This document shows, piece by piece, positions 4,084 to 63,831 of a DNA stretch of 64,000 bases (the stretch's first letter is position 1; the number at the start of each line of letters is the position of its first letter). The stretch covers positions 2,816,001-2,880,000 of the forward strand of contig OZ250169.1 in assembly GCA_965237955.1 (NCBI GenBank). Reading direction: 5' to 3'. Source of the DNA: Candidatus Marinacidobacterales bacterium. Its GTDB lineage: Bacteria > Acidobacteriota > Vicinamibacteria > Marinacidobacterales > SMYC01. The notes under the pieces were generated by a model. It was not told where the DNA came from. It saw nothing but the letters and a program-made list of their open reading frames with translations, and ran no database searches. Position numbers and translations under genes: made by a program.

Positions 4084-4165
4084 GCCCTTGGTCCGGTCGC
4101 AAACACAGGTACTGAGCTGCTGATTTATGGTCTATTTCAAAAGCGCCGAGTTTTGGCACAGGACG
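4084..4165 (+). repeat. Type A element end (solo)
   Basis: Matches the right end of 48919-50348 (...GCTGCTGATTTATGGTCTATTTCAAAA.CGCCGAGTTTTGGCACAGGACG). Confidence 0.85.
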
Positions 4166-4836
4166 GGGTGCCTGAATCTGAGGTCAGCGCGGCGCTCGCT
4201 GATTTCCCTATGAATGCTCTTTTGGTGTTTAACAAAGTAACTGGAGTAGGAAACAGACGTACTTTCTCGCCCACTCTCATGCCAGTTTCTGGGTTTGGAG
4301 ACAGCCTAAATCTGATTCGGACTAAGAGAACACCAACTCTTTACGCTGGCTTGTGCGCAAACTTGTCGTCGCTTTGCTTAGATTTTACGGCCCGCCAGAA
4401 AGTCGGTGGAGTGAACATTAACTTCTTTCACGTTCAGCAATTGCCAGTTCTAGGCCCGAACTTCTACACGGAGCCCCGCTTCGCCTTCCTTGTCCCCAAG
4501 GTTCTCGAACTCATCTACACCTCTCACACAATGGCTCCCTTTGCCCGCGATCTCGGCCATGGCGGCCCCCCATTCGCCTGGGATGAGGAACGACGCGCGT
4601 GCCTGCGCGCCGATCTCGACGCCTTCTACGCCCGCGCCTACGGTCTGATCCGCGACGAGCTGCGCTACATCCTCGACCCCGCCGACGTGAAGGGCCCCGA
4701 CTACCCGTCGGAAACCTTCCGCGTACTCAAGGAAAAGGAAATCCGCCAATACGGTGAATATCGCACGCGCCTCCTCGTCCTCGCCGCGTGGGACCGGATG
4801 GAGGCGAATGGCCAATTCACGGGACTTGGTTTGTGA
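4166..4836 (+). pseudogene. C-terminal fragment of a type IIG (Eco57I-like) restriction-modification protein
   Basis: LDFTARQKVGG, PPFAWDEERRA.LRADLDAFYARAYGL and ETFRVLKEKE..YGEYRTR C-terminus. Begins abruptly at a type A end. Confidence 0.8.
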
Positions 4837-5594
4837 TCGAAACGCCCCAAGGTTTCGTCGTCGCTGAGGAATGCCGAAAGGCCGCTTGGCAGAACGGCTA
4901 TCGCCGCCCGCTGGAAGAGGAGGCCGGCTGGGCACGATACGGCTCCACCACTGCGAAGGGGACCATCTACGTCTCCGCGACGGGGCCTTCCGGTCCCTGG
5001 TTCCTCGCTCTCGACCACACGGGCGTCGTCGAGGAACTGGAGCATCCACGCGCCGACATGCCCGGTCCCGGCCTTGCCCGCTATGCCTTCGCCAGGCTAA
5101 CCGAACTTTATGCGGTGCTGCCCAAGGTCTACGATCTTGGCGTAGCGTTGCCCGAGGCCCCGCTCGAAGACTTCCGCGCCGCAACCCGCGACCTGCCAAA
5201 GACCACCGAGGCAGAGCGCCTCGTCGTTCAGCGCATCGGCCAGGGCATCTTTCGCGACCGCCTGCTGACCTACTGGCAGGGCCGTTGCCCCTTGACCGGA
5301 ATCACGGACCGAGACCTGCTGCGTGCCTCGCACATCATTCCCTGGAAGGACTGCCCCGACGACGCCGAACGTCTGAACATTCACAACGGACTGCTTCTCT
5401 CAGCACTTTGGGATGCGGCCTTTGACAGGGGACTAATAACCTTCGATGACGACGGGAGACCAGAGTTCTCGCCTCCCCTGAGCGAGCCGGCACGAACCGA
5501 GCTGCATTGGCATCATCCCATTCCGTTGACAGAGAAGCACCAGAAACGGCTTGCATGGCATCGAGCGAATCATTTCAAGAAAGACCAGGGATGA
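4833..5594 (+). CDS. HNH endonuclease (HNH_2-like)
   Basis: GTG overlaps the upstream TGA; QRIGQ..FR..L..YW.GRC.LTG, LLRASHIIPW, NGLLLS..WDAAFD.GLITF. Confidence 0.85.
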   Translation: MIETPQGFVVAEECRKAAWQNGYRRPLEEEAGWARYGSTTAKGTIYVSATGPSGPWFLALDHTGVVEELEHPRADMPGPGLARYAFARLTELYAVLPKVYDLGVALPEAPLEDFRAATRDLPKTTEAERLVVQRIGQGIFRDRLLTYWQGRCPLTGITDRDLLRASHIIPWKDCPDDAERLNIHNGLLLSALWDAAFDRGLITFDDDGRPEFSPPLSEPARTELHWHHPIPLTEKHQKRLAWHRANHFKKDQG

Positions 5595-5855
5595 CATCAC
5601 GTTTCATTGAAGCGATGCCCGTGGTATGCCCCCAAAAACTGGCCCAAACACAGCTGAAGGAAGTCGCATAGACTGAAGCTCCAGTGGGGAGGGTCCAAGT
5701 GAAGAACCGTTTCTCCGAAGAGAAGTTCGTACCCAATCGGGTCGCACTGAGCATGAACGTCGTCAAGACCATCAAGCGCTCTTCTCGCGTGGAGAGGATC
5801 TCGTGAGGTTGATTTACATGGACGAGGCTGGTATCGGAAATCCTGCCGAGGAGCC

Positions 5856-6320
5856 CGTCCTGTCCAAAAACACAAACGAACTCAAGAGTGGCGCGCCGGG
5901 CCGTTTCGATCGCGTCGTGTCCAAAAATACAAACGCACTCTAAGACCCGCGCGACGGGCCATCGTCGAGTTCAGCTATCATTAATTATGGAGAGCGCCAC
6001 CATCAAGGACTTGGCAACGCGTTTGTGTTTTTCGTGACGACGGGCTCGTTCGCCTACGGCGTCAAAGAGTCCGTGAGTGTGGCCTGTGCCTTCTATTTAT
6101 TCATCCGCGCGCCCAGAACTTGATTAGCGTCGTGTCCAAAAATACAAACGAACTCAAGACCGGCTCGCCGGGACGTTTCGGAATAGACGTATCTACGCTT
6201 GATTGGCCAATGGGAGCTACCCTTGACACTGTTGGTCGTCGCAATCGCTGGTTGGCTCCAGCGTGACCAACAGGCCGCTATCGCGTCCTGTCCAAAAACA
6301 CAAACGAACTCAAGACCGGC
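5856..6320. repeat. Cluster of type B and C ends, including a ~130-bp type B MITE (5913-6042) and a type B transposase 5' remnant
   Basis: CGTC(C/G)TGTCCAAAAA(C/T)ACAAACG at 5856, 5913, 6128 and 6284; CCTGTGCCTTCTATTTATTCATCCG at 6083. Confidence 0.8.
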
Positions 6321-7552
6321 GAGTCTGCGCCGTTTCGATCGTCATCGACCCGTGGCGAGCCCCAGATCTGGGGCGTGTCGGAGGCGATGTCGGCGATTCG
6401 GGTTCCCCGTACGCGCAGGGAAAACACCGTTCAGCAACGAGGTGCCACGCTCCCGGGCGGAGACCTGGATCCAGGCCCGGGCCGCACATGGACCAGAACG
6501 TGCTAGCCGGCTACGCCACGGTAGCCCTGGCCTCGATTCTGGACCCCTCGGGCGGCCTCTTTTCCGCTGCCCGCAAGGTCCCCGGTCAGATGGCGCAAAC
6601 GTGGCACTCGAAAATCGGGATTAGAGACGAATGCCGAAAATGAGGCCCGTTCAGCCCTTCTAGCGCATCTCTGGTGCCACCTACCCTTGCAAAACCCCGC
6701 CAACCGCGCGGAAAATCTCATCCGTCTCTGCAGTGCCACAGTTTGCAAGACTGGGTGGCGGATGGTGCAGTCTCGAGCCATCCGGTCTCGGCAAAAGGTA
6801 TTTTGGCAATTTTGGGAGTCAGGATCGAATTTTGGCCGTGCGCGTGGTTGGGGCAATGTAGCGAAAACTCAGAGAAGCCCTGATGCCCACAGCGTTCTAT
6901 CCTGTTTTGTTACAGTGACTTAACGGAAGCCACCACGTGCTGGTCCCCGCACATCTCATCGGCGGGTGCTCGTTCCGAGCCGGAATCGAATTTGCTTCAA
7001 TCAAATTTCTTGTACGGCAATCTCAACCTCCTGGACGCTTGAAAGAGGGCCGTGTCGTAAACCCTCCGGAGGCGGCTCCGACCGTTACTCATTGTCGCAA
7101 AAGGCTTTACGTCTCATCAGCGAATGTTCGTCGACGGGAACATCTTTCCGGCTATCGCAGTCAGGAGGCTCGAGTGGAGCTTCCGATTCTTGGCTGGAAA
7201 CGATCAGAAACAGAGCAAAACAGGCCATTAACGTGCAATTTGGGGCGATTTTGGGGCTTATCGGGACGTTTTTCCACTTAATCGCGCAGACAATGAGAAG
7301 ACGCTCTACGCCTAGATCGCGCCTGAGGAGAGGACGAATAGCGGAATTCGAATTGGCCAAACCTCGAATTCATCCAGTGGAGTTTTACGGAGGAAACGAA
7401 GATGACTCCGCAGACGGTCCAGTACAAGGAGCTATCCGAGTCTGGAAACCATGACAGGGAATTTGGGCCAGTTTGAGGCTGATTGGTGGAGGCCAGTGTC
7501 GGAGAGCAGCTTGCTGCTAACCGAGGCCATTCACGAAGTGGGCGCTGGAGGC

Positions 7553-9214
7553 TCACAGCGTTTTGACGAGCACTCGCTGTTTCTCCCAATCGTCGGGAAG
7601 CGGATGATGCAAGAGGTAGCTCGAGGTCAGCCCAACGGGCTGGCGGCCTTCGACAATGGCGCGGACGATGTCGGGAGCCAGGAAGGCATAACGGATTGCC
7701 TTGCGCACGCGGTCCGTTGGGATGGCGTTTTCGGTGGCAATCTGCTCATAGGTTTTGCCTGCTTTGATTCGGTCGAGCCAGGAGAGGGCGTTTCTGATAT
7801 TGCGCAGGAGTGTGCGGTCGACGGATTTCGTGGGGTTGCCCAGAACGAGCTTGGTCTCGACGCCGCGTCGACGCAAGCGGAACGGTGCGAGGATGCGGAG
7901 TGCATCCTCGCGAATGCGGTCAGGTCCCATAGACAGGCAATCAGCGAACGCATTGCGGTCGAGCAGGATGGACACAGAGCCGGGGCTGATATCGACCTGC
8001 CGGATAAGACGGAGCAGGGGGGCTGCCGAGGCACTATCATCATTAGTATCGGAACACAGCCCGTCTAAAAAGCGACGCACCGAGGCGAGCTCTTGCATCG
8101 TCGGAGTGTGGATCAACGAGGCCGAGAAGGTCGTGACATCCACATGCTGTCGGATGAGATGCACGACGGTCTGTTCCAGCATCGGGGCGGGCAGTCGCCA
8201 GCCGGAGAGGTCCTTTTGACCACTGTGCTGGATGAGGCGCCGGGAGACGTAGTAGCGGAGCCGTTGCCCGTTTTTCTTTTTGGTGTGGCTCGGCGTCAGC
8301 CGGTCGCCGGTCTCGTCGAAGAGCTTGCCTGCCAGTGGGGAACGGGCTGCACGGCCCTTCGTCGTGCGTCTCCTTGGTTTGGCAGCCCCTGCCTGCAGCT
8401 GCGTTTGGACCGCGTCCCAGAGCTCCGGAGCAATGATCGATGGATGCTGGCCCTCGTAGACACACCTCTGGTGCCGGATGCGGCCGGCGTAGAGAGGATT
8501 GGTCAGCAGGCAGTGGAGGTGTCCGCGACGGAACGGCAGCCCGCCCGTTCGGGTTCCATCCGCGGTGAAGCGTTGCTTGGTACGCAGTCTCAGACGGTCC
8601 GCCTCGGCCTTCACCTGCCGGAGCGTTTCGTGCTTTCGGTACAGCGCATAGAGCGTCCGGACCGTTTCGGCCTCAGCCTCGTTGATGCGCAGCGTGCGCC
8701 CGTCCTTCTCATAGCCGAGCGGTACGCGGCCGCCCATCCATAGTCCCTTGCGCTTGGAGGCAGCGACCTTATCGCGGATCCGCTCGGCCGTGACCTCGCG
8801 TTCGAATTGTGCGAAGGACAGCAGCATATGCAGCGTCAGTCGTCCCATGCTGGTCGCGGTGTTGAAGGACTGAGTCACCGAGACGAAAACCGCGCCGGCC
8901 GCCTCGAGCCGCTCGACGAGCTTTGCAAAGTCGGAGAGGGAACGGGTCAGCCGGTCGACCTTGTAGACCACAATCTGGTCGACGAGACCTGCGTCGATGT
9001 CGGCGAGCAAGCGCTGCAGGCCCGGGCGCTCCAGGGTTCCTCCCGAGAGCCCCGCGTCCTCGTAGACGGTTGGCAGCAGCACCCAGCCCTCCGCTTTCTG
9101 GCTCGCGACATACGCGGCGCAGGCTTCTCGCTGCGCATCGAGGGAGTTGAACTCCTGTTCGAGACCCTCTTCCGCACTCTTTCGCGTATAGATGGCACAG
9201 CGGATCTTCTTCAT
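7553..9214 (-). CDS. Large serine recombinase (resolvase + recombinase domains), copy 1
   Basis: RCAIYTRKS catalytic Ser motif, SGGTLERPGLQRLL, VYKVDRLTRS, FAQFEREV. Probable ATG at 9214, just after the DUF2924 stop. Confidence 0.92.
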   Translation of the reverse strand: MKKIRCAIYTRKSAEEGLEQEFNSLDAQREACAAYVASQKAEGWVLLPTVYEDAGLSGGTLERPGLQRLLADIDAGLVDQIVVYKVDRLTRSLSDFAKLVERLEAAGAVFVSVTQSFNTATSMGRLTLHMLLSFAQFEREVTAERIRDKVAASKRKGLWMGGRVPLGYEKDGRTLRINEAEAETVRTLYALYRKHETLRQVKAEADRLRLRTKQRFTADGTRTGGLPFRRGHLHCLLTNPLYAGRIRHQRCVYEGQHPSIIAPELWDAVQTQLQAGAAKPRRRTTKGRAARSPLAGKLFDETGDRLTPSHTKKKNGQRLRYYVSRRLIQHSGQKDLSGWRLPAPMLEQTVVHLIRQHVDVTTFSASLIHTPTMQELASVRRFLDGLCSDTNDDSASAAPLLRLIRQVDISPGSVSILLDRNAFADCLSMGPDRIREDALRILAPFRLRRRGVETKLVLGNPTKSVDRTLLRNIRNALSWLDRIKAGKTYEQIATENAIPTDRVRKAIRYAFLAPDIVRAIVEGRQPVGLTSSYLLHHPLPDDWEKQRVLVKTL

Positions 9215-9215
9215 G

Positions 9216-9647
9216 TTAGGCCTTGCGCTTGGGCGTGAGACCGAAAAAGCGTGGTCCTGACCAGTGGGTGCCGGTGATTCGCTTTGCGATGGTAGTGAGG
9301 GACGGATAGGTTTTGCCATCGAACCGATAGCCGTTGTCGATTACCTCGACCTGGTAGGTCCGGCCATTCCACTCGCGGACGAGATGGGTGCCGGCAGAAA
9401 CGGACCCTGCGGGAGCGCCGGAGCTTGGTGTCTCGTTCGCCATGGCAGCCAGAGCGCGCCGGGTTGCGGCCGAAAGCCCGCCATGGGTCCGGCACTGGCG
9501 TTCGTGCAAGAGAACGCGGCGCAGGAAAACACGCGAGAGCGAGCTTGGAGGAGCAGCCCCAAAGGTCTGCTCCCAGACCCGCCGTAAGCTGGCGAAGTCC
9601 AAACCGTCCAAAACGACGTTCCGGCCAACCCCTGTATCCTGCGGCAT
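9216..9647 (-). CDS. DUF2924-domain protein, copy 1
   Basis: GT.LVREWNG..YQV.V...GY.FDG..Y.SL..IA..ITG..WSGPRFFGL signature, directly upstream of the serine recombinase. Confidence 0.88.
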   Translation of the reverse strand: MPQDTGVGRNVVLDGLDFASLRRVWEQTFGAAPPSSLSRVFLRRVLLHERQCRTHGGLSAATRRALAAMANETPSSGAPAGSVSAGTHLVREWNGRTYQVEVIDNGYRFDGKTYPSLTTIAKRITGTHWSGPRFFGLTPKRKA

Positions 9648-9818
9648 CACCGAACGTTCGCTCTTGTGCTCGATAAAGTCCAGTCTAATGAGGGACTTCC
9701 GGGTGCGAAGTTCACTGCCCGTAGCTCGCCACGCAGCCCAAGGGTCGGCGGATTCCAAGGGCGTCTAAGCTGCTGATTTGTGGTCTATTTCAAGAGGGGC
9801 GAGTTTTGGCACAGGACG

Positions 9819-12307: not shown

Positions 12308-12589
12308 CTTAGTCTTACCTCTCACAGGCTATGCCGTCGTTCTCTCGGTCGATTGCGCGCGATGGAGACGCATATCGCGGTCCTCCACCTAGTAGCGTAC
12401 AGCGGCGAAGAATGGAACTCGGGTGCTTCCGCAGTTAAATGTTGGCGCCTGCCGTGTAACCCGTTCGCCTGCTAGAGTTTGAGCCTGATTTCGAGAGGCG
12501 CAGTTCTTTCGTCGATGTCGGCTGGGCCGAGTTTTGGCACAGGACGAGGAAGACGCCCAATGAAAGCCAGACCGAAGAGGATCTGATCT

Positions 12590-14435: not shown

Positions 14436-14550
14436 CGTCCTGTGCCAAAATTTGATCCACTTGCAACGTTACAAGCGAACAGTTGACGCGGCGTGGGAGG
14501 TGAGGCCCGCGACAACCATTGAGCAGAGCTACCCTTTGGACGGGTCGTCA

Positions 14551-14962
14551 CCATGCAGATGACCACCTAGTCGAGAGCGAATATCCAAGCGTGTTCCTGA
14601 AGCTGTTTTCACGCTACGCCGAGCGGGCCCACCGAGGGGCTACCGTCGCCAGCGACCATCTACGCGGCACGGCAGTAGTAGTTGAGAATGCCCCCAAGTC
14701 GCTCTCGCGACACGATGGGGCCAGCGCTATTCGCGCTTGCCGGCAGAGGTGTGAGGAGCTCGTTGCCGAGACTTTGGTGGTTCCGTTCTGTGTGTGATAG
14801 TGCACTACGTATTCGGTTACCGCTGTGCGCAGGTGTCGCTCACTGAGAGGTACGAAGCGGTCGAGACACTCTCGACGTATGGAGAGAACGAATCTTTCCG
14901 CGTATGCGTTCAGATTCGGACTGTTCGCTGGAAGGCGGAGGGGCTTCACACCTGAATCTCTC
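14551..14962 (-). mobile_element. Type A transposase 3' remnant
   Basis: [25 protein letters not shown]; matches about 49820-50235 in inverted orientation. Confidence 0.85.
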
Positions 14963-15018
14963 AAGAGGGTCAAGTCTTAATTTTCCTGTCAAATCTCCGT
15001 ACGGTTCCCCGCGCTCGG

Positions 15019-16280
15019 TTAAGCTGCTGATTCCTCCGACGTACGGTTCCCCGCGCTTGCGGGATTCCTCCGAAGCTCGTTGCGAAGCTCCTCGACTTTC
15101 CTAGCGGCGAAGACATCCATCCTCACGCCGCGCCATTTGTTTGCGACGGCCAAGAGCACAGCGAACGAGAGTTTCATCGCGGCCTCCTCGGTGAAGAAGT
15201 GAGGAATGACCTTTGTGCGACGTTTGTGCTCTCCGAACGTGCGCTCAAGTAGATTCGACGTGCGAAGCCTTTTGTGATGCGCCGCAGGAAGGCGTAGCGC
15301 CTGAAGACACGCTTCGAGGGTCTCTTCCATGCACTTCATCGCGCTCGGGAATCGTTGACGGTACCGAGCGATCACCTCCCGACCCTTCTTCAGCCCTTGC
15401 TCGTAGCTGTTCGCATGGAACGACTCAAGGATGGCCGCCTTGAGTTCGTCGCGCACTTCCTTCGGAGCCTTGCCCAGGATGTTCTCGAGGCGGTGCTTCT
15501 GGCAACGTTGCTTGAGGCTTCGAGGGAAGACCTCTGCGATCGCTTTGAGCACTCCAGGATTCCCGTCCGTCACGATGAGCAACGGCTCCCTCATTCCTCG
15601 GGCCACCATCTCCTGCAAGAACCCCTTCCAGTTCTCGTAGGATTCTCGGTTGCCGACACCGATATGAAGAAGAACTCGCGTCCCATCAGCGCGATAGCCG
15701 GTCGCAACGAGGATGGGCTCTTTCCTCTCCGCTCCTTGGTGGTAGCGCAGGTACGTGCCGTCGAGCTCGAGATACAACAGCTTCTCGTTCGAGAGATCCC
15801 GTTTTCGAAACGCCTCGAAATCCTCCGACAGACACCGTGTGACCCGGCTCACCACCGACTTCGAGACACCCGTGCCGCTCAGCACGTCCGCGAACGTCGC
15901 CTCAATGTCACGCGTCGACATCCCGTGGACGTACATCCGCGCGATCAGTTCATCGAGTTTCTCGGTCCGGCTCACGTAGGCGTCGAGAATCTTTGACTGA
16001 AACACCTTCTCTGTTTCTCGTACCTGCGGCACTTGCACCGTTACCGCTCCCTCGCCCGTGAGGACCCGATGCGACTCATACCCGTTGCGTCGTCCCTTCT
16101 CCTTCGTCGTTGCCGGAGCGTTCTCATAGTAGTTTCGACCCAACGCCTCCGTCACCTCGCGCTCCAACGCATATTGAAGCATCATCTGAGCTCCCGACCG
16201 GACGATCTCCGAGAGATTCATCTCCCCAAATACCAGTTGTTCCTCGAACTGCTTGAGCAATCGCTGACTCGGGCGAAGGA
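15019..16280 (-). CDS. IS256-family transposase (5' end probably replaced by a type C end)
   Basis: GRRNGY, GMSTRDIE, LELDGTY, DGNPG, QRCQKH and RTSNLLER motifs; IS256-like end GGTCAAGTCTTAATTTTCCTGTCAAAT near 14968. Confidence 0.88.
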
Positions 16281-16436
16281 CTTCCGACCCATGGGGCTGG
16301 CGGATGAATAAATAGAAGGCACAGGCTTGAGCGCACGGCGTTGCCAATATCTTGGGGTCGGATCGGCCCTGAATGCATCAACTTGACAGGGAGCGGATTG
16401 GTCAAGCAGGTCAATCGTGAGAATATTGGATCGAGC

Positions 16437-17075
16437 ATGAAGAAACGTTCCCTCCGATACGCTGGCGGCAAGGCCGTTCGCGCTCTATTGGAACGTTATG
16501 CGTGCCCGACGTCATTCCATGTTGTCCGCACACGACTCCTCGGCAACATCGCGACGCCCAAGCTCGACGCATCGCCACTCCGAGCTATAGAGAGCTGTTG
16601 GGAAGGTGAGTTGCCGGGGTTCGACAATGTCGGCGCAGCCAGTGAGCTATTCGAGTCCCTGATGGGGCTTTGGAACGAACTGGCAAGGCATCAATCGGCA
16701 ACCAAGCCGTTCCGTTTGACACGGATGGAGGCTAAGCCGGATACGGATGACATTCGCCGCTTGTGCCGGACCCGCACCGAGGAGCTTGAAGGCTTCATCG
16801 ACGGACTGTTCGGTGACGTGGAGTTCATGGATCTGCCCGAACGGGCCAACGAGGCTCTGGACAACCTCGGCAAGATCTATGCCATGACCCGCGGTATCAT
16901 CGATCTCCTGGAGAGAGAGTCGGCGTCAGAGGGGGACCTTAGGGGAATTCTCAAGGACGTTGGGGAGCTCTCACACATCGCAGAGAAAGAACTGCACGCA
17001 GTAATGCTTGCCTGCAAGCGCGCCCGCCAACAGACCCTTTCCACTATCGCCGTGGGCAAACCCACCGTCCATTGA
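16437..17075 (+). CDS. Hypothetical protein
   Basis: 212-aa ORF from ATG 16437 with natural composition; family not recognised. Confidence 0.6.
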   Translation: MKKRSLRYAGGKAVRALLERYACPTSFHVVRTRLLGNIATPKLDASPLRAIESCWEGELPGFDNVGAASELFESLMGLWNELARHQSATKPFRLTRMEAKPDTDDIRRLCRTRTEELEGFIDGLFGDVEFMDLPERANEALDNLGKIYAMTRGIIDLLERESASEGDLRGILKDVGELSHIAEKELHAVMLACKRARQQTLSTIAVGKPTVH

Positions 17076-17194
17076 AGGGAAGTGTCACGAGCAGCCGGAA
17101 GTAGTTCTCACCAGGGGCGATGTCCCGGAAGTGGCGTCGCTCAGATGCCGATTTGTAAACGTTGCCAGTGGATCAAGTTTTGGCACAGGACGAG

Positions 17195-24986: not shown

Positions 24987-26047
24987 CCGGCTACGCCGCG
25001 GTTGCCATGGCCTTGATTCTGGACCCCTCGGGCGGCCTCTTTTCCGACGCTGCACGGCCCTGTCAGCGACCCACTCCCCCCCTTTGGCGCAAACGTGGCA
25101 CTCGAAAATCGGGATTAGAGACGAATGCCGAAAATGAGGCCCGTTCAGCCCTTCTAGCGCGTCTCTGGTGACACCTACCCCTGCAAAACCCCGCCAACCG
25201 CGCGGAAAATCTCACCCGTCTCTGCAGTGCCACAATTGGCCAGACTGGGTGGCGGATGGTGCAGTCTCGAGCCATCCGGTCTCGGCAAAAGGTATTTTGG
25301 CAATTTTGGGAGTCAGGATCGAACTTCTGGCCGTGCGCGTGGTTGGGGCAATGTAGCGAAAACTCAGAGAAGCCCTGATGCCCACAGCGTTCTATCCTGT
25401 TTTTGTACAGTGACTTAACGGAAGCCACCACGTGCTGGTCCCCGCACATCTCATCGACGGGTGCTCGTTCCGAGCCGGAATCGAATTTGCTTCAATCAAA
25501 TGTCTTGTACGGCAATCTCAACCTCCTGGACGCTTGAAAGAGGGCCGTGTCGTAAACCCTCCGGAGGCGGCTCCGACCGTTACTCATTGCCGCAAAAGGC
25601 TTTACGTCTCATCAGCGAATGTTCGTCGACGGGAACATCTTTCCGGCTATCGCAGTCGGGAGGCTCGAGTGGAGCTTCCGGTTCGTGGCTGGAAACGATC
25701 AGAAACAGAGCACAACAGGCCATTAACGTGCAGTTTGGGGCGATTTTGGGGCTTATCGGGACGTTTTTGCGCTTAATCGTGCAGACAATGAGAAGAAGCT
25801 CAACGCCTAGATCGCGCCTGAGGAGAAGGCGAATAGCGGAATTCGAATTGGCCAAACCTCGAATTCATCCAGCGGAGTTTTATGGAGGAAACGAAGATGA
25901 CTCCGCAGACGGTCCAGTACAAGGAGCTATCCGAGTCTGGAAACCATGACAGGGAATTTGGGCCAGTTTGAGGCTGATTGGTGGAGGCCAGTGTCGGAGA
26001 GCAGCTTGCTGCTAACCGAGCCGATTCACGGAGTGGGCGCTGGAGGC

Positions 26048-27663: not shown

Positions 27664-27792
27664 CGTCGTGTCCAAAAACACAAACGCGTTGCCAAGCCCT
27701 TGATGGTTGCGCTCTCCATCATAATGATAGATGAAACTCGGCGACGGCCCGGCGCGCCGGTCTTGAGTTCGTTTGTGTTTTTGGACAGGACG
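27664..27792. mobile_element. Type B MITE (129 bp)
   Basis: CGTCGTGTCCAAAAACACAAACG ... CGTTTGTGTTTTTGGACAGGACG; related to 5913-6042 and 38096-38183. Confidence 0.85.
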
Positions 27793-47702: not shown

Positions 47703-47809
47703 AAGTTGGGTGGGTAGCCGAAGCACGGCTCTTGACCCGGTCGCAAACACAGACACTAAGCTGCTGATATTATGGTCTGTTTCAAAAGGCCGAGTTTTGG
47801 CACAGGACG

Positions 47810-48918: not shown

Positions 48919-50348
48919 CGTCCTGTGCCAAAACTCGGCCCTCTTGAAATAGACCACAAATCAGCAGCTTAGTGTCTGTGTTTGCGACCGGACCAAGGGC
49001 CGTAGGCTTTACAATCGTCTGGCCCGAGGGTGTTATCTTCAGATCCATGATGACGTACCACGTGCAATTCCTACTGCTCGTTCTAGCTGGCTGGGTCAAC
49101 CGCCAGCAGCAGGATGTGATCGACTACCAGCAAGAGGAGAACCGTGTGCTCCGAGCCGGGCTTCGGGGCAAGCGTCTCAGTCTCTCGGACGACGACCGGC
49201 GCAGGCTCGCGGTCAAGGCCCAGGCTTTGGGCCGCGAGGCGCTGGCCCAGATTGCGTCCGTTGCCACACCCGCTACGCTTCTGCGTTGGTACCGCTGCCT
49301 CATCGCAGCCAAGTACGATGGCAGCAAGAACCGGAGCCCAGGCCGACCTCCGACGGCGAAGGACATCCGTGAGCTCATTGTGCGCGTGGCGCGGGAGAAC
49401 CCGACGTGGGGATATACGCGCCTGCGAGGCGCACTCAAGAACCTAGGACATGAACTCGGACGCAACACTATCAAGAGGATCCTCGCCGAGCACGGTATCG
49501 CTCCTGCGCCGGAGCGGGGCAAGAGCATGTCGTGGAGCACCTTCATCAAGGCTCATTGGGGCGCCATCGCTGCGACAGACCTGTTCACCGTCGAGGTTGT
49601 GAACCCGTTCGGGCTCGTCCGCTACCATGTCCTGTTTGTCATCGATATCGCCACTCGCTGCGTGTGCATCGGTGGGATAACGTCGGACACCCCAACGGGG
49701 AGTGGATGAAGCAGGTGGCAAGAAACCTCACTGACATGTGGGATGGTTTCCTCCTTGGCAAGCGATACCTCATCCACGACCGGGACCCGCTATTCACCGA
49801 GGCGGTACGTGGGCTGTTGAGAGATTCAGGCGTGAAGCCCCTTCGCCTTCCCGCTAATAGTCCGAATCTGAACGCATATGCGGAAAGATTCGTTCTCTCC
49901 ATACGTCGAGAGTGTCTCGACCGCTTCGTACCTCTCAGTGAGCGACACCTGCGCACAGCGGTAACCGAATACGTAGTGCACTATCACACAGAACGGAACC
50001 ACCAAGGTCTCGGCAACGAGCTCCTCACACCTCTGCCGGCAAGCGCGAATGACGCTGGCCCCATCGTGTCGCGAGAGCGACTTGGGGGCATTCTCAACTA
50101 CTACTGCCGTGCCGCGTAGATTGTCGCCGGCGACGGTAGCCCCTCGGCGGGCTCGACCGGCGTAGCGTGGAAACAGCTTCAGGAACATGCTTCGATATTC
50201 GCTCTCGACTAGGTGGTCATCTGCATGGTGACGACCCGCCCGCCCAAGACGATTGTAAAGCCCACGGCCCTTGGCCCGGTCGCAAACACAGACACTAAGT
50301 TGCTGATTTATGGCCTATTTCAAAAGGGCCGAGTTTTGGCACAGGACG
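48919..50348 (+). mobile_element. Full-length type A integrase-core (rve/DDE; IS481-like) element, 1430 bp
   Basis: About 100-bp imperfect terminal inverted repeats starting CGTCCTGTGCCAAAACTCGGCCC, enclosing one transposase gene; no target-site duplication. Confidence 0.88.
49047..50119 (+). pseudogene. Type A integrase-core transposase, frameshift near 49690
   Basis: ENPTWGY.R..G.L..LG, W.TF...H, TDLFTV (D), HDRD (D), NAYAERF (E), ERNHQG, RLGG.L.YY. Confidence 0.88.
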
Positions 50349-53766: not shown

Positions 53767-54127
53767 CTGCCATCAGGGCCGCTTCTTTCACTGTCCCTGC
53801 GGATACAGAGCCGGGCAAAGGTTCCCGCCTAATCGACTTCTAGGCACCAGCCCTGAGCTAGTCTCGTGGGGGCTTCCTGGTCGTGCGACGGGCAGAATGA
53901 GAGGGGCGTTGCGCGTCGCGTCCTGCGCCAAAACTCGGCCTTTTTGAAATAGACCATAGATCAGCAGCTTAGTGTGTCTGTGTTTGCGACCGGGCCAAGG
54001 GCCGTAGGCTTTACAATCGCGTCGTGTCCGAAAATGCGTACGGAGCCGAAAGCTCGAATCCTGGAGGCGTTCTCGAGATTCACGGAGACCAGCCGACGCG
54101 GCACTGGCTCTGCGATAGGCGCTCCCG

Positions 54128-54550
54128 CTTCCTGTGCCAAAACTCGGCCCTTTTGAAATAGGCCATAAATCAGCAGCTTAGTGTCTGTGTTTGCGACCGG
54201 ACCAAGGGCCGTAGGCTTTACAATCGTCTGGCCCGAGGGTGTTATCTTCAGCTCCATGATGACGTACCACATGCAATTCCTACTGCTCGTTCTAGCTGGC
54301 TGGGTCAACCGCCAGCAGCAGGATGTGATCGACTACCAGCAAGAGGAGAACCGTGTGCTCCGAGCCGGGCTTCGGGGCAAACGTCTCAGGCTCTCGGACG
54401 ACGAGCGGCGCAGGCTCGCCGTCAAGGCCCAGGCTTTGGGCCGCGAGGCGCTGGCCCAGATTGCGTCCGTTGCCACACCCGCTACGCTTCTGCGTTGGTA
54501 CCGCTGCCTCATCGCAGCCAAGTACGATGGCAGCAAGAACCGGAGTCCAG
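54128..54550 (+). mobile_element. Type A left end and transposase N-terminal fragment
   Basis: Matches 48919-49340, then switches to type C sequence. Confidence 0.85.
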
Positions 54551-54821
54551 GCACCATACCTACATGATTTCGTCGTTTGTTCTTGCTCTCATCTCTGCCT
54601 TCAAGGCTCGTCGCGAGCTGGTGCCCGCGATGAATAAAATAGGGTTCTCCCGTCCTGTGCCAAAACTCGGCTCTTTTGAAATAGACCACAAATCAGCAGC
54701 TTAGACGCCCTTGGAATCCGCCGACCCTTGGGCTGCGGGGCGAGCTACGGGCAGTGAACTGCGCACCCGGAAGTCCCTCATTAGACTGGACTTTATCGAG
54801 CACAAGAGCGAACGTTCGGTG

Positions 54822-55253
54822 ATGCCGCAGGATACAGGGGTTGGCCGGAACGTCGTTTTGGACGGTTTGGACTTCGCCAGCTTACGGCGGGTCTGGGAGC
54901 AGACCTTTGGGGCTGCTCCTCCAAGCTCGCTCTCGCGTGTTTTCCTGCGCCGCGTTCTCTTGCACGAACGCCAGTGCCGGACCCATGGCGGGCTTTCGGC
55001 CGCAACCCGGCGCGCTCTGGCTGCCATGGCGAACGAGACACCAAGCTCCGGCGCTCTCGCAGGGTCCGTTTCTGCCGGCACCCATCTCGTCCGCGAGTGG
55101 AATGGCCGGACCTACCAGGTCGAGGTAATCGACAACGGCTATCGGTTCGATGGCAAAACCTATCCGTCCCTCACTACCATCGCAAAGCGAATCACCAGCA
55201 CCCACTGGTCTGGACCACGCTTTTTCGGTCTCACGCCCAAGCGCAAGGCCTAA
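54822..55253 (+). CDS. DUF2924-domain protein, second copy
   Basis: Near-identical to 9216-9647. Confidence 0.88.
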   Translation: MPQDTGVGRNVVLDGLDFASLRRVWEQTFGAAPPSSLSRVFLRRVLLHERQCRTHGGLSAATRRALAAMANETPSSGALAGSVSAGTHLVREWNGRTYQVEVIDNGYRFDGKTYPSLTTIAKRITSTHWSGPRFFGLTPKRKA

Positions 55254-55254
55254 C

Positions 55255-56916
55255 ATGAAGAAGATCCGCTGTGCCATCTATACGCGAAAGAGTGCGGAAG
55301 AGGGTCTCGAACAGGAGTTCAACTCCCTCGATGCGCAGCGAGAAGCCTGCGCCGCGTATGTCGCGAGCCAGAAAGCGGAGGGCTGGGTGCTGCTGCCAAC
55401 CGTCTACGAGGACGCGGGGCTCTCGGGAGGAACCCTGGAGCGCCCGGGCCTGCAGCGCTTGCTCGCCGACATCGACGCAGGTCTCGTCGAGCAGATTGTG
55501 GTCTACAAGGTCGACCGGCTGACCCGTTCCCTCTCCGACTTTGCAAAGCTCGTCGAGCGGCTCGAGGCTGCCGGCGCGGTTTTCGTCTCGGTGACTCAGT
55601 CCTTCAACACCGCGACCAGCATGGGACGACTGACGCTGCATATGCTGCTGTCCTTCGCACAATTCGAACGCGAGGTCACGGCCGAGCGGATCCGCGATAA
55701 GGTCGCTGCCTCCAAGCGCAAGGGACTATGGATGGGCGGCCGCGTACCGCTCGGCTATGAGAAGGACGGGCGCACGCTGCGCATCAACGAGGCTGAGGCC
55801 GAAACGGTCCGGACGCTCTATGCGCTGTACCGAAAGCACGAAACGCTCCGGCAGGTGAAGGCCGAGGCGGACCGTCTGAGACTGCGTACCAAGCAACGCT
55901 TCACCGCGGATGGAACCCGAACGGGCGGGCTGCCGTTCCGTCGCGGACACCTCCACTGCCTGCTGACCAATCCTCTCTACGCCGGCCGCATCCGGCACCA
56001 GAGGCGTGTCTACGAGGGCCAGCATCCATCGATCATTGCTCCGGAGCTCTGGGACGCGGTCCAAACGCAGCTGCAGGCAGGGGCTGCCAAACCAAGGAGA
56101 CGCACGACGAAGGGCCGTGCAGCCCCCTCCCCACTGGCAGGCAAGCTCTTCGACGAGACCGGGGACCGGCTGACGCCGAGCCACACCAAAAAGAAAAACG
56201 GGCAACGGCTCCGCTACTACGTCTCCCGGCGCCTCATCCAGCACAGTGGCCAAAAGGACCTCTCCGGCTGGCGACTGCCCGCCCCGATGCTGGAACAGAC
56301 CGCCGTGCATCTCATCCGACAGCATGTGGATGCCACGACCTTCTCGGCCTCGTTGATCCACACTCCGACGATGCAAGAGCTCGCCTCGGTGCGTCGCTTT
56401 TTAGACGGGCTGTGTTCCGGCAGTAATGATGATAGTGCCTCGGCAGCCCCCCTGCTCCGTCTTATCCGGCGGGTCGACATCAGCCCTGGCTCTGTGTCCA
56501 TCCTGCTCGACCGCAATGCGTTCGCTGCTTGCCTCTCTATGGGACCTGACCGCATTCGCGAGGATGCACTCCGCATCCTCGCACCGTTCCGCTTGCGCCG
56601 ACGCGGCGTCGAGACCAAGCTCGTTCTGGGCAACCCCACGAAATCCGTCGACCGCACACTCCTGCGCAATATCAGAAACGCCCGCTCCTGGCTCGACCGA
56701 ATCAAAGCAGGCAAAACCTATGAGGAGATTGCCACCGAAGACGCCATCCCAACGGACCGCGTGCGCAAGGCAATCCGTTATGCCTTCCTGGCTCCTGACA
56801 TCGTCCGCGCCATTGTCGAAGGCCGCCAGCCCGTTGGGCTGACCTCGAGCTACCTCTTGCATCATCCGCTTCCCGACGATTGGGAGAAACAGCGAGTGCT
56901 CGTCAAAACGCTGTGA
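55255..56916 (+). CDS. Large serine recombinase, copy 3
   Basis: Intact RCAIYTRKS; near-identical to copies 1 and 2. Confidence 0.92.
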   Translation: MKKIRCAIYTRKSAEEGLEQEFNSLDAQREACAAYVASQKAEGWVLLPTVYEDAGLSGGTLERPGLQRLLADIDAGLVEQIVVYKVDRLTRSLSDFAKLVERLEAAGAVFVSVTQSFNTATSMGRLTLHMLLSFAQFEREVTAERIRDKVAASKRKGLWMGGRVPLGYEKDGRTLRINEAEAETVRTLYALYRKHETLRQVKAEADRLRLRTKQRFTADGTRTGGLPFRRGHLHCLLTNPLYAGRIRHQRRVYEGQHPSIIAPELWDAVQTQLQAGAAKPRRRTTKGRAAPSPLAGKLFDETGDRLTPSHTKKKNGQRLRYYVSRRLIQHSGQKDLSGWRLPAPMLEQTAVHLIRQHVDATTFSASLIHTPTMQELASVRRFLDGLCSGSNDDSASAAPLLRLIRRVDISPGSVSILLDRNAFAACLSMGPDRIREDALRILAPFRLRRRGVETKLVLGNPTKSVDRTLLRNIRNARSWLDRIKAGKTYEEIATEDAIPTDRVRKAIRYAFLAPDIVRAIVEGRQPVGLTSSYLLHHPLPDDWEKQRVLVKTL

Positions 56917-58030
56917 GCCTCCAGCGCCCACTCCGTGAATCGGCTCGGTTAGCAGCAAGCTGCTCTCCGACACTGGCCTCCACCAATCAGCCTCAAACTG
57001 GCCCAAATTCCCTGTCATGGTTTCCAGACTCGGATAGCTCCTTGTACTGGACCGTCTGCGGAGTCATCTTCGTTTCCTCCATAAAACTCCGCTGGATGAA
57101 TTCGAGGTTTGGCCAATTCGAATTCCGCTATTCGCCTTCTCCTCAGGCGCGATCTAGGCGTTGAGCTTCTTCTCATTGTCTGCACGATTAAGCGCAAAAA
57201 CGTCCCGATAAGCCCCAAAATCGCCCCAAACTGCACGTTAATGGCCTGTTGTGCTCTGTTTCTGATCGTTTCCAGCCACGAACCGGAAGCTCCACTCGAG
57301 CCTCCCGACTGCGATAGCCGGAAAGATGTTCCCGTCGACGAACATTCGCTGATGAGACGTAAAGCCTTTTGCGGCAATGAGTAACGGTCGGAGCCGCCTC
57401 CGGAGGGTTTACGACACGGCCCTCTTTCAAGCGTCCAGGAGGTTGAGATTGCCGTACAAGACATTTGATTGAAGCAAATTCGATTCCGGCTCGGAACGAG
57501 CACCCGTCGATGAGATGTGCGGGGACCAGCACGTGGTTGCTTCCGTTAAGTCACTGTAAAAAAACAGGATAGAACGCTGTGGGCATCAGGGCTTCTCTGA
57601 GTTTTCGCTACATTGCCCCAACCACGCGCACGGCCAAAATTCGATCCTGACTCCCAAAATTGCCAAAATACCTTTTGCCGAGACCGGATGGCTCGAGACT
57701 GCACCATCCGCCACCCCGTCCTGTGCCAAAACTCGGCCCTTTTGAAATAGACCGCAAATCAGCAGCTTAGACGCCCTTGGAATCCGCGCAGAATCCAGGG
57801 TATTTCGCGCCGCAGGGCTGACTTCCGACCCATGGGCTGGCGGATGAATAAATAGAAGGCACACCCAACTCGGCGTCTTCTTGTTGCCCGCGAATGTCGG
57901 ACCCCAACGGGGAGTGGATGAAGCAGGTGGCAAGAAACCTCACGGACATGTGGGATGGTTTCCTAGTTGCTGATTAATGGCCTATTTCAAATGGGCCGAG
58001 TTTTGGCACAGGACGGGGGCGGACATCGTC

Positions 58031-59170: not shown

Positions 59171-60310
59171 GGGCGGCGCGGGCGTGATCCGCGCGGGTGC
59201 GGTAGACGTTGACGGCCTCGACGCCCTCGGCCTGCCGCGCGTCGCGCTGCGCGTGGCCCGGCCAACCGGCGGCAGGCGCCCGGCCCGAGTGCGGCACACC
59301 CTTGAATCACACGGCGCGCGCGCGCCCACCGGTGCCGGGTGCGGTCGGCCAGCTCGGCCCCGTGGCGGCACTGGTCGGCGTGTGTGGCGGCATGGGTCGC
59401 CACCGTGTCCCATGCCTCGGCCGCGGGCGCGGTTCGCGGTCGCGGCGTCGGTCGCGGCGTCAGCGACCTGGGCGGCGCGCGCGTGGTGCGCCGCGGCGGT
59501 GCGTGCCTCGTCCGCTTTCACGGCGCGGGCGCGCATCAGGTCGAGCGCCTTGCTCGCCTTGGTGCTCAGCGCGCTGGCGGTGGTGATTGTCTTCGGCATC
59601 GGCTGTGGTGTCCTTTCTGCGCGGGGGCTCGTCGGGGATTCCGTCCTGGCCGCCGATGAGGTCGATGAGCGCGGTCCTGTGCCGGCGTCGCCGGTCCTTG
59701 ATGGCGATCAGGTGCTGCTCCCGCTGGTCCATCCGCGCGATCGCCCGATCGAACAAAGGGAGCGCCGTCGTCAGCTCGGGCGATGGCGTCGTCGTCGTCC
59801 TGTGCCAAAACTCGGCCCTCTTGAAATAGACCACAAATCAGCAGCTTAGTGTCTGTGTTTGCGACCGGACCAAGGGCCGTAGGCTTTACAATCGTCTGGC
59901 CCGAGGGTGTTATCTTCAGATCCATGATGACGTACCACGTGCAATTCCTCGTCCTGTGCCAAAACTCGGCCCTTTTGAAATAGCCGATTAATCAACAGCT
60001 TCGTGTCTGTGTTTGCGACTGGGCCAAGGACTGTAGACTCTACAATCGTCTTGGGCGGGCAGGTCATCACCATGCAGATGACCACCTAGTCGAGAGCGAA
60101 TATCGAAGCGTGTTCCTGAAGCGGTTTCCACGCTACGCTGAGCGGGCCCACCGAGGGGCTACCGTCGCCAGCAACCATCTACGCGGCACGGCAGTTGTAC
60201 TTGAGAATGCCCGTCGTGTCCAAAAACACGAACGCACTCACCACCTCGGACCTTTGGGAGGTGCAAACTGCTGACCCGCTGGGCGTTCGAGTATTTGGAC
60301 CAGACGGCAT

Positions 60311-61702: not shown

Positions 61703-62046
61703 CTCTATTCCTGGAATCCATCTTATCTTGCCGAAAATGGATCCCCGTCCTGTGCCAAAACTCGGCCCTTTTGAAATAGGCCATAAATCAGCAACTTAGT
61801 GTCTGTGTTTGCGACCGGGCCAAGGGCCGTGGGCTTTACAATCGTCTTGGGCGGGCGGGTCGTCACCATGCAGATGACCTCCTAGTCGAGAGCGAATATC
61901 CAAACGTGTTCCTGAAGCTGTTTCCACGCTACGCCGGTCGAGCCCGCCGAGGGGCTACCGTCGCCGGCGACAATCTACGCGGCACGGCAGTAGTAGTTGA
62001 GAATGCCCCCAAGTCGCTCTCGCGACACGATGGGGCCAGCGCGTTC

Positions 62047-63413
62047 GGATGTGTCCCGAGGTTCGTGGAAAAAGAACGGCGCCCTCCACTCCGTCATCAG
62101 GGTATCATATCAGGCGGCAGCCTCCGCGTGTTCGAGAACCTCGCTCAGACGTTGGTAGCCGTCGATGCGTCGTAGTTGAATCTGGCCAGAGGCGATAAGC
62201 CCAAACAGCAAAGCGACCGCGGACTCCTCGCTGGAGAACGACGCTTGGGTTTTCGTCCGGCGTCGAAACTCGCGGTTGAGATTCTCCAGAGCATTGGTCG
62301 TTCGAATCGATTTCCACATGGCACGAGGGAATTCGTAGAAGGTCAGCAGCTGATTACCGGCCTCCTCTAGGCTTCGGACGACGGCCGGCGCGAGAGGCGT
62401 CCACTTGGCGACGAGCTCGTCATAGGCTTTGCGAGCATCGATCCCGTTCTTGGCGTAGACGATCCGGTTGTAGTCACGCCGGAGCTCACGGCGTGCGTGC
62501 GCCGGGCAATGTTCGAGCAAGTTGGCGCGCTTGTGCTCGGTACATCGCTGCAACCGGCACCCCGGCCACTTCTCGAGCGCTTTCGTCAGCCCCTTGTGGC
62601 CGTCGCTGATCACTAGCTTGGGAGCCCGGAGTCCTCGAGCCTGGAGTCCCTCCAGCACGGAGCCCCAATGCGTCGAGGCTTCGCTCACCGCCAGACGCAA
62701 TGACAACAGACGTTTCTGCCCGTCTGGCGCGACCCCGAGCGCGACCAGTACGGGTACGCTGATCACACGTTTCGCCATCCGCACTTTCAGGTGGAAGCCG
62801 TCCAGGTAAACGATCGCGTAGACCTCCTCGCTGAGAGCACGGTTCTGCCATTCCTCGAAGCGCTCCTTCAGCCGGCTAACCACGCGAGACACCGCGCTCT
62901 TCGATAGGTGCTCCTCACCGAGCAGTGGTTTCAGCGCTTTGCGGATCCGGCGGCTATTCGCGCCCGACAAGTACGTCCCCAAGATCGCCTCGTCGACCTC
63001 ACGAGTCCGGCGCGCGTACCGGGGCAACAGCTCGCTCCTGAACTCTGTCGTTTCTCCCGTTTCCTCGTCTCGCACGCGGGCTCGTGGCACCCGGAGCTCG
63101 CGAGTTCCCACCGACGTCGTCACGCGACGGGTTTCGGCTCCGTTGCGATATCCACGGCGGTCTTCCGCACGCTCGTAGCTACCACACCCCAGCGCTTGGT
63201 TGACTTCTTCCTCGAGCACGACCTCGATCGCCTCCAGTACCCGCTTACGCAGCCGAAGTTGGACGAACTCCCGGTACTCGCTTACAGACTCCTTCGATAT
63301 GGTGGTAGGCTTCTTCATGGCGTAATCCTCCTCCTCGCCTTTACAGGCGTGGTTTGGTTTTTCTTAACCGGAGGTTACGCCATTCTTATTTCCACGGGAA
63401 TCGGGACAGATCC
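62047..63413 (-). mobile_element. IS256-family element
   Basis: Imperfect inverted repeats GGATGTGTCCCGAGGTTCGTGGAAA / TTTCCACGGGAATCGGGACAGATCC; inserted into a type A right-end remnant (61746-62046). Confidence 0.85.
62110..63318 (-). CDS. IS256-family transposase
   Basis: GYRNG, VPRAR, YLDG, ISDG..GL, QRC..H, IRTTN.LE.LNRE.RRR. Confidence 0.93.
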   Translation of the reverse strand: MKKPTTISKESVSEYREFVQLRLRKRVLEAIEVVLEEEVNQALGCGSYERAEDRRGYRNGAETRRVTTSVGTRELRVPRARVRDEETGETTEFRSELLPRYARRTREVDEAILGTYLSGANSRRIRKALKPLLGEEHLSKSAVSRVVSRLKERFEEWQNRALSEEVYAIVYLDGFHLKVRMAKRVISVPVLVALGVAPDGQKRLLSLRLAVSEASTHWGSVLEGLQARGLRAPKLVISDGHKGLTKALEKWPGCRLQRCTEHKRANLLEHCPAHARRELRRDYNRIVYAKNGIDARKAYDELVAKWTPLAPAVVRSLEEAGNQLLTFYEFPRAMWKSIRTTNALENLNREFRRRTKTQASFSSEESAVALLFGLIASGQIQLRRIDGYQRLSEVLEHAEAAA

Positions 63414-63416
63414 GCG

Positions 63417-63627
63417 CGTCCTGTCCAAAAACACAAACGAACTCAAGACTGGCGCGCCGGGACGTTTCGGATCAGAGACGTCTGAGGCTTGGTTGGCCAA
63501 TGGAAAGCTAGAATCCTAGGTCATGAGGAGGCAGAGCCAGCCCTGGACATAGTTGGTCGTCGCCATCCCTGGTTGGATCCAGCGTGACCAACAGGCCGCT
63601 ATTCGTTTGTGTTTTTGGACACGACGC
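63417..63627. mobile_element. Type B internally deleted element (~210 bp)
   Basis: Type B ends on both sides enclosing the first codons of the type B transposase. Confidence 0.8.
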
Positions 63628-63831
63628 CTGACGATGAGAGAACTGTGTCTTCAGAATTCTGGTTCAAACTCTAGCACGCAGACCGGTTAGGGGTTGGCCG
63701 CCAACACTTAATTGCGGAAGCACCAAACTGCCTGTAACCAGGATGCTTTGGTCGTCTTCATGTAGGACGTCTTTAGGGTCGGCGTCCGCTCCATCGGCTA
63801 TTTCAAAAAGGCTGAGTTTTGGCACAGGACG

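Follow-up and report, generated by a model that had tools for sequence, protein, structure and literature searches.

How did the termini of one insertion sequence (IS) family come to stand at two dozen places within 64 kb of a bacterial chromosome, several of them directly against truncated genes? We addressed this question for positions 2,816,001–2,880,000 of the single 8.13-Mb contig of a Candidatus Marinacidobacterales bacterium (GenBank assembly GCA_965237955.1, contig OZ250169.1). This stretch of 64,000 nucleotides is referred to as the window, and coordinates are those of the window unless marked as genome positions. The 24 ends are the terminal inverted repeats of one IS481-like element, here called family A, and of its derivatives without a transposase gene. 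The mosaic of gene fragments around them was probably built by repeated insertion beside ...ACCC sites, interruption by other ISs, and deletions and inversions between IS copies.

The first-pass annotation of the window had claimed 24 termini, and the same terminal sequence, CGTCCTGTGCCAAAAC..., is present at all 24. A regular-expression scan of the window recovers 23 of these tips, and the remaining one (28942) has one mismatch. The element lies to the left of the tip in 13 cases, the tip then ending in ...GTTTTGGCACAGGACG (also read ...GAGTTTTGGCACAGGACG), and to the right in 11, the tip then starting with CGTCCTGTGCCAAAA.

Tips with the element to the left: 4165, 9818, 12546, 17192, 28195, 28942, 30341, 36244, 38248, 47809, 50348, 58015, 63831
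Tips with the element to the right: 14436, 29959, 41494, 48919, 53919, 54128, 54651, 57717, 59796, 59950, 61746

BLAST with the full-length element as the query matched 21 of the 24; tips 12546, 14436 and 17192 have only the outermost ~18–45 nt in common with the full element. In a repeat search of the window the tips fall into families of 10–13 same-strand copies. Genome-wide, a 20-mer tip pattern occurs 426 times and its reversed control is not found at all, so the tip is present far above chance.

The element itself is represented in the window as follows.

48919..50348, plus strand: family A element of 1430 bp, the only one in the window that is both full-length and uninterrupted, with ~102-bp inverted repeats and its gene split in two frames

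The two frames occupy 48948–49706 (domains HTH_32/HTH_21) and 49454–50116 (rve_3), and the split is accompanied by a 2-nt length difference. The standard intact element, found elsewhere in the genome, for example at genome 8059693–8061120, is 1,428 bp long and has one open reading frame (ORF) of 381–385 amino acids. Among 21 full copies whose two ends could be paired (92–100% identity), the ORF is continuous at 381–385 amino acids in 14, has 363–367 amino acids in three and is split in four. Since it is continuous in most full copies, the two frames of the window copy result from mutation and not from a programmed frameshift. The claim that the window holds only one full-length element stands for uninterrupted copies; the segment 14436–17192 looks like an interrupted variant copy. 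The inverted repeats of the element are ~102 bp long with arms 89–99% identical. The tips begin with CGTCCTGTGCC, and positions 1–20 are at least 93% conserved across all 460 ends of the family in the genome.

The transposase carries the domains rve_3, HTH_32 and HTH_21, which bears out the earlier assignment to an integrase-core family. Its best NCBIfam match is IS481 (NF033577; 101.1 bits against a cut-off of 224, profile positions 6–280 of 284), followed by IS3 (NF033516; 82.4 bits against a cut-off of 160). It is thus IS481-like by architecture, yet passes neither of the two curated tests. Metagenomes hold thousands of relatives of ~357 amino acids and ~65% identity, named at most "transposase InsO family", and the best match in a plasmid collection (39% identical) is annotated only as "integrase core domain-containing protein". 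Rfam models gave no match in the window at gathering scores. Two other classes were considered and rejected. CGTC-tagged repeats of the repetitive extragenic palindromic (REP) type are described, in an excerpt of PMC3733652, as 20–40-bp hairpin-forming palindromes headed by CGTC. The family A tip does start with CGTC, but it folds no better than its shuffles (z = +0.56), and the REP-like reading is rejected on that ground. Tn3 elements have long repeats, one-ended transposition, a resolvase, a large DDE transposase of their own type and 5-bp duplications; membership of that family was rejected as well, the transposase having 381 amino acids with rve_3, duplications being absent and the test for one-ended units (below) being negative.

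Full copies contribute 44 of the 460 distinct family A ends that BLAST with the full element finds in the genome, and copies truncated after 106–1420 nt contribute 131. A further 109 ends share ~54 nt only with the element, and the remaining ones share 31–105 nt. Ends thus far outnumber elements (460 ends, 21 paired full copies) in the whole genome as they had seemed to in the window, and the family is recent as well as numerous, in agreement with the high activity ascribed to it earlier. Neighbouring ends are convergent in 125 cases, divergent in 126 and in the same direction in 208, so that no orientation rule holds among them. Two back-to-back pairs of A tips (genome 7838746/7838772 and 7854559/7854587) enclose spacers of 25 and 27 nt, both of which start with GGGTC and end with (G/A)CCC or GGG; one contains a small hairpin-like palindrome.

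Two kinds of derivatives have A tips and no transposase. The miniature two-ended elements are 316–318 bp (15 copies) or 391–395 bp (6 copies) long, and the cargo elements measure 3.4–6.3 kb. A complete cargo element at genome 870870–874296 (3427 bp) has 54-nt A tips on both sides and encodes a DUF2924 protein and a 588-amino-acid large serine recombinase. About 30 copies of most of this serine-recombinase element are present in the genome, three of them in the window. Judging from the shared tips, the transposase may act in trans on the gene-less and cargo elements.

The inner breakpoints of truncated copies adjoin termini of other IS families, e.g. TGAACCGCCCC..., which indicates that many family A truncations were made by the ends of other ISs. 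One family A copy lies in three pieces with overlaps of 3 and 8 nt. The ends are confined to territories at 0–1.25, 2.0–2.5, 2.75–3.75 and 7.25–8.13 Mb, about 3.1 of the 8.13 Mb. When the genome is divided into 64-kb bins, 85 of 128 have no ends, and the window, with 21 BLAST-defined ends, is the fourth densest. Family A had been taken to drive the mosaic; A tips do stand at truncated genes, but just 13 of the 131 inner breakpoints of truncated copies adjoin another A tip.

The DNA outside the tips follows a rule that can be written ACCC|NGT. Among 425 distinct flanks the preferred letters are G at −5 (0.49), A at −4 (0.68), C at −3 (0.63), C at −2 (0.89) and C at −1 (0.78). For 257 of the 460 ends the flank has an uninterrupted paralogue, and (G)ACCC is present in these paralogues, so that the motif belongs to the target. 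The sequence displaced by the tip was examined in 190 junction families where the paralogue is unrelated to any tip beyond nt 5. It begins with NGT (compare CGT of the tip), with G at +2 in 0.65 and T at +3 in 0.59 of the families against a background of 0.30 and 0.21 after [AT]CCC; G at +1 is depleted (0.13 vs 0.40). The displaced sequence is a tip in its own right, of type A or of a second type, B, in 29 of 235 families. One site of the serine-recombinase element, ...CCACCC|AGTCTGG..., is reached by 22 copies of that element; 5 of these have an A tip there, and the five A elements are different ones.

The explanation that we favour with moderate confidence is that an IS481-like family with a strong site preference would multiply along with its gene-less and cargo derivatives, inserting repeatedly beside ...ACCC sites, whereupon other IS families would interrupt its copies. 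Insertions may once have made short duplications that rearrangement later erased, and deletions between or beside IS copies would remove the partner flanks. Individual junctions would go back to adjacent deletion, inversion or recombination between copies.

Other ISs of the same chromosome provide the controls for this explanation. The absence of target-site duplications from family A, as claimed by the first-pass annotation, was borne out across the copies. The missing duplications and partner flanks are not peculiar to the family, however, since two IS5-like families behave in the same way. Both have perfect inverted repeats, and a copy's own duplication was found in none of 80 full copies of the first (that of 2389–3475) and none of 50 of the second (20473–21557 / 23130–24214). 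Among 103 left and 106 right ends of the first family, 7 nine-base duplications are split across copies (expected 0.04); among its full copies there are 5 such pairs. Four of the five inspected pairs are inverted copies 8–356 kb apart, and split duplications on inverted copies are what inversion between copies, or inverting intramolecular transposition, leaves behind. Of 11 full copies of the IS256-like family, 5 retain exact 8-bp duplications, and these all lie in IS-poor regions at 5.43–7.05 Mb, which validates the detection method; two more copies have a repeat offset by one base, as judged by eye. The four IS256-like copies without any repeat all lie at IS-rich sites of the A-rich regions, one of them within the window. 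Taken together, the IS5-like and IS256-like controls make the loss of duplications and partner flanks a property of IS-rich territories, and gene scrambling is a property of IS-saturated regions, not of family A alone.

The removal of partners and duplications among hundreds of copies matches, by analogy, laboratory IS expansion as described in an excerpt of PMC12065110. There, with high IS activity and selection relaxed, 363 deletions, 54 inversions and 40 duplications arose, 99% of them IS-associated, and many of the deletions were short and IS-adjacent.

A number of results weigh against insertion followed by erosion. Exact direct repeats of at least 3 nt flank 2 of 73 convergent pairs of A ends less than 1.5 kb apart in this genome and 2 of 41 full copies in other genomes, and shifting both assumed boundaries by −5 to +5 nt yields repeats in at most 4 of the 73 pairs. 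Joined-flank empty sites were sought in this genome for 114 pairs; a paralogue spanned four and none was clean (one paralogue, at 79% identity, carries 5 additional bases there, and the others are self or gapped matches). The motif is another difficulty: ...ACCC is read toward the element on both sides of full copies, a misfit with two-ended insertion at one site. Such insertion would need GGGT after ACCC, a duplication of at least 10 bp starting with GGGT, or half of the flanks of the form ACN. GGGT was not seen directly after ACCC in the paralogues, NGT standing there instead; there is no enrichment of GGGT upstream, which excludes a long duplication (GGGT...ACCC); and flanks of the partner-joint type, with A at −3, make up 4% where half is needed. 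Insertion with random loss of one side alone does not explain the one-sidedness.

No long repeats of up to 60 nt were found at the family A elements themselves, and the counts of duplications shared by partner ends across the family are at or below expectation for k = 5–8, with single cases at k = 10 and 20. Empty sites of the 41 full copies of other genomes gave one marginal match in this genome, and when 20 relatives were searched for the empty site of one element whose flanks had seemed unique, those flanks proved to be other repeats within ~100 nt. For no more than 12 of 257 junctions was a partner recovered at another tip, and tips abutting one another at less than 25 nt were not seen. 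Units inserted by one tip were rejected: the displaced continuation lies within 30 kb downstream in 30 of 257 cases (plus 23 trivial ones) and in 53 of 257 in the upstream control, so that the earlier idea of one-ended capture failed its direct test. Target deletion between two nearby sites was likewise rejected, having two candidates only, of 132 bp and 37 bp. The former is a clean case: in the parental sequence, 132 bp separate what are now the two flanks of a tip-bounded unit. The latter lies in a complex reference that itself contains tips. Every junction now present has the appearance of having arisen by its own one-sided event at an ACCC|NGT site.

A rival reading is a transposase that exchanges flanks one end at a time. 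It would join a single cleaved tip to a mimic of its own cleavage site: the transferred strand of the tip ends in ...ACG, the flank starts with GGGTC, and at sites of the form ...ACN|GGGTC the ACN side would be displaced, giving deletions and inversions that end exactly at tips and no target duplication. The ACCC logo, the NGT-like start of the displaced sequences with its depletion of G at +1, the A- and B-type tips among those sequences, the repeated use of the ...CCACCC| site by five different elements and the scarcity of partner junctions all suit this scheme. Copy-out/paste-in transposases, in the part of PMC7780238 that was consulted, do perform asymmetric single-end strand transfer beside a second inverted repeat, although on our reading of that part the known step attacks the other strand and retains the repeat side, not the flank side. 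Orphan flanks, moreover, are about as frequent in the IS5-like control (only 7 of its 103 left ends could be matched to a partner), so that later deletions, and not only the enzyme, may have caused the one-sidedness; ordinary insertion leaves the asymmetric motif unexplained. Tip 47809 also differs in subtype from tip 58015, which cuts the same ORF, and its junction is no simple adjacent deletion from a neighbour. We regard exchange of this kind as unlikely, and hold it equally doubtful that the transposase is mainly a sequence-directed one-end recombinase acting at ACN|GGGTC, leaving no duplications and favouring related tips as targets.

A chimeric assembly or binning path through repeats common to co-resident organisms appears very improbable. 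The relatives with the element are titled metagenome-assembled genomes, and the source genome is a single contig with 6.2% estimated contamination; window segments are 98–99% identical to other genera and another family of the order, and in run X16 single-copy segments of 28–42 kb differ about 8-fold in contig depth. The contig depth of single-copy segments in run X1 is even (16–36), however, and GC content hardly differs between A-rich (59.6%) and A-free (60.6%) regions. Tips follow ...TGTACCAATG(C/G)ACC(C/T) in three other records as well as in this genome, and the end of the serine-recombinase element with its tip recurs in two other records. The split 9-bp duplications on inverted IS copies are a trace of real inversions, and mis-joins would re-pair flanks rather than remove partners. 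Sponge-metagenome runs contain about half of the sampled words, and their contigs match the window at about 99%. Logan contigs over 28000–42000 stop 23–30 nt inside the tips and none crosses a junction by 31 nt on both sides; they give no verdict on the junctions. Even less probable, to the point of being hardly credible, is a reading in which the large serine recombinase (with DUF2924) recombines at the tips and these are not transposase substrates. About 30 copies of the recombinase element are bounded by the 54-nt tip, target duplications are absent and the junctions are sequence-specific. Yet the tips are the outer part of ~102-bp repeats around an rve transposase gene in 21 copies here and 41 elsewhere, most of them (in full copies and miniature elements) have no recombinase nearby, and an element's two junctions mirror each other, whereas a crossover core would give direct repeats.

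Insertion with subsequent erosion by many ISs remains the preferred account. The single-copy share of the window is only 30% (70% repeated). Besides family A the window contains the two IS5-like families, genes of an IS256-like and of the IS110 family, and three serine-recombinase elements. The remaining A-type ends belong to the following features.

4083..4165, minus strand: solo A end, 83 nt, adjoining an ORF with a Yip1 domain
6465..9818, minus strand: serine-recombinase cargo element with its far tip missing; A tip of 54 nt (9765–9818), DUF2924 (9219–9764), 588-amino-acid recombinase (7553–9319)
12524..12546, minus strand: tip-only match of ~23 nt, the end of another repeat, cutting an AcnX gene
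14436..17192, strand not assigned: probable variant of the family A element, bounded by inverted repeats of its own (CGTCCTGTGCCAAAAYTTGATCCACT...) and with an IS256-family transposase gene (15022–16377) inside
25243..28195, minus strand: damaged serine-recombinase cargo copy, recombinase N-terminally truncated (26051–27718), A tip at 28142–28195
28832..28942, minus strand: solo A end, 111 nt
29959..30341, strand not assigned: miniature element of 383 bp with two A-type tips and no gene
36131..36244, minus strand: A tip on a truncated CxxCxxCC/YkgJ-like gene (36245 onward), 54 nt common with the IS and 118 nt with 57713–57830
38184..38248, minus strand: A tip closing a 2-kb unit (36245–38250) that is repeated elsewhere in the genome
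41494..41575, plus strand: solo A end, 82 nt, by BLAST
47724..47809, minus strand: solo A end, 86 nt, cutting a copy of an ORF that is longer after 58015
53919..54017, plus strand: solo A end, 99 nt, by BLAST
54128..54552, plus strand: truncated family A copy, first 425 nt, by BLAST
54651..57716, plus strand: serine-recombinase cargo element; A tip (54651–54704), DUF2924 (54705–55250), recombinase (55150–56916)
57717..58015, strand not assigned: miniature element of 299 bp with two A tips, the right one adjoining ORF 57974–59167
59796..59949, plus strand: truncated family A copy, first 154 nt, outer junction same as at 48919, cut by the next tip
59950..60212, plus strand: remnant of a family A copy (its final 263 nt in inverted orientation), with a type B tip after it at 60210
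61746..62041, plus strand: remnant of a family A copy (its final 296 nt in inverted orientation), cut off by an IS256-like element (62047–63413)
63798..63831, minus strand: tip-only end of 34 nt, abutting part of the interior of the family A transposase gene in inverted orientation

In the probable variant element, 14538–14967 is 95–96% like the right part of the full family A element. The cargo element at 54651..57716 is cut at its own position 3066 (...CCACCC) by the A tip that follows.

Genes had been described as cut exactly at the tips, and this stands in the four cases checked (36244, 47809, 12546 and 63831). Tip 36244 adjoins ...|GGGTCGG within the CxxCxxCC (YkgJ-like) gene. Three other copies of this gene in the genome, and one in the genome of another family, are uncut and continue upstream without a tip. 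The upstream part of the gene was nowhere found joined to a tip. The 2-kb unit that begins here (36245–38250) comprises the truncated CxxCxxCC gene, an AhpC/TSA-like gene and tips; it is 100% identical to genome 8045170–8047175, in part to genome 2988484–2990334, and 99% identical to a segment in another family's genome. What follows tip 47809 is a 1.1-kb piece whose sequence reappears unchanged in the distal part of a 1.8-kb piece next to tip 58015, and the ORF that is cut at 47809 is ~690 nt longer in the latter copy (57974–59167). Hence one ORF was cut at two points by two tip subtypes; it has a weak match to a LuxR-type helix-turn-helix only. At 12546 the AcnX remnant covers profile positions 2–66 of 400 only. 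At 63831 an A tip adjoins the element's own gene, 63829–64000 being 49437–49608 inverted at 98% identity.

The second tip type, B, reads CGTC(C/G)TGTCCAAAAACAC... / CGTC(C/G)TGTCCAAAAACACAAACGAACTCAAGAC and has only the first ~8 nt in common with type A. At least 12 type B tips lie in the window (5854, 5911, 6126, 6282, 24634, 27662, 36570, 36940, 38094, 54018, 60210 and 63415). Their flanks do not show the ACCC motif. In one flank family, ...CTGCCTTCCGACCC|, a type B tip follows in 56 copies and an A tip in 4. The type B transposase may be one of the paralogues of 54–62% identity.

Two other segments of the window are repeated or shared. A tandem array at 45860–46448 has 8 copies of ~61-nt units, some pairs of which are 99–100% identical; it is built around a 30-mer (CCACCCCTTGATGGCGGAAGCACCGAATAG) and lies beside an IS110-family gene (44812–45894), and single copies of the 30-mer occur at 10834, 31289 and 63701. 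The segment 31024–35944 (4.9 kb), with a gene for a CotH kinase domain, is 98% identical in the genome of another genus, and its counterpart in the genome of another family is shortened and has IS5-like copies on its sides.

Outside this genome, full copies with 93–99% protein identity are found in several metagenome-assembled records of one acidobacterial order, and one with 86% in a Gemmatimonadota record. The tip pattern is present in 5 of 20 relatives (276, 364, 113, 75 and 27 copies; two families) and absent from the other 15, and the transposase has the same distribution. Kilobase segments of the window are 98–99% identical in other genera and in another family, in different neighbourhoods, which implies that the DNA is shared horizontally.

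The IS481 family has short terminal inverted repeats of a few tens of bp that begin with TGT, and makes target duplications of 4–15 bp. Family A resembles it in its length of ~1.4 kb, single uninterrupted ORF, helix-turn-helix plus rve DDE transposase and best NCBIfam match, but scores 101 bits, far under the cut-off of 224. Its tips begin with CGTCCTG and its repeats measure ~102 bp. Duplications are missing from its 73 pairs and 41 copies beyond the few short repeats given above, although control ISs in the same regions have lost theirs too. IS3, a copy-out/paste-in family with two overlapping ORFs joined by a −1 programmed frameshift, shares HTH_21 and rve_3 with family A, and the window copy looks two-framed as IS3 does; yet 14 of 21 full copies have a continuous ORF, 82 bits is below the cut-off of 160, and no 3–4-bp duplications are found. 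Miniature inverted-repeat transposable elements and "transporter" ISs are comparable to the 316–318-bp, 391–395-bp and 3.4–6.3-kb elements with IS tips and no transposase; the cargo here differs in being a large serine recombinase with DUF2924 in about 30 copies, with no flanking duplications. IS30 and IS911 insert beside their own ends or end-like sequences, and the end-like target stays beside the newcomer. The tip-like start of the displaced sequences at family A junctions (NGT vs CGT), with a related tip in 29 of 235, resembles this behaviour, but here the end-like target is gone. IS erosion in host-restricted bacteria, for which the excerpt of PMC12065110 gives a laboratory model, likewise combines very high IS numbers with deletions and inversions that end at ISs, and with copies lacking a duplication of their own; here, by contrast, the scrambling is limited to about 40% of the chromosome and involves DNA shared with other genera at 98–99% identity.

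The general picture of IS saturation, mosaic genes and lost duplications is already known. No description of family A, and no paper with its tip 15-mers, was found in the paper library that was searched, which does not include ISfinder. The family itself, the ~102-bp length of its repeats, the CG at the start of its tips, the cargo forms and the ACCC|NGT rule thus appear to be unnamed. What is added is a well-delimited relative of IS481 that stands out by the unusual length of its inverted repeats and by its strict flank motif and that has miniature and cargo forms, spread over six genomes from two families of one acidobacterial order at 96–99% protein identity. The chromosome also provides its own internal controls, as its IS-rich territories have lost nearly all target duplications and its IS-poor regions retain them. 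If the ACCC|NGT asymmetry reflects the chemistry of the enzyme and not later loss, it would represent a new route of genome remodelling for a DDE transposase and would offer a handle for predicting deletion endpoints. Were the transposase indeed a one-end recombinase, the family would reshuffle and delete DNA at hundreds of precise junctions while never leaving duplications.

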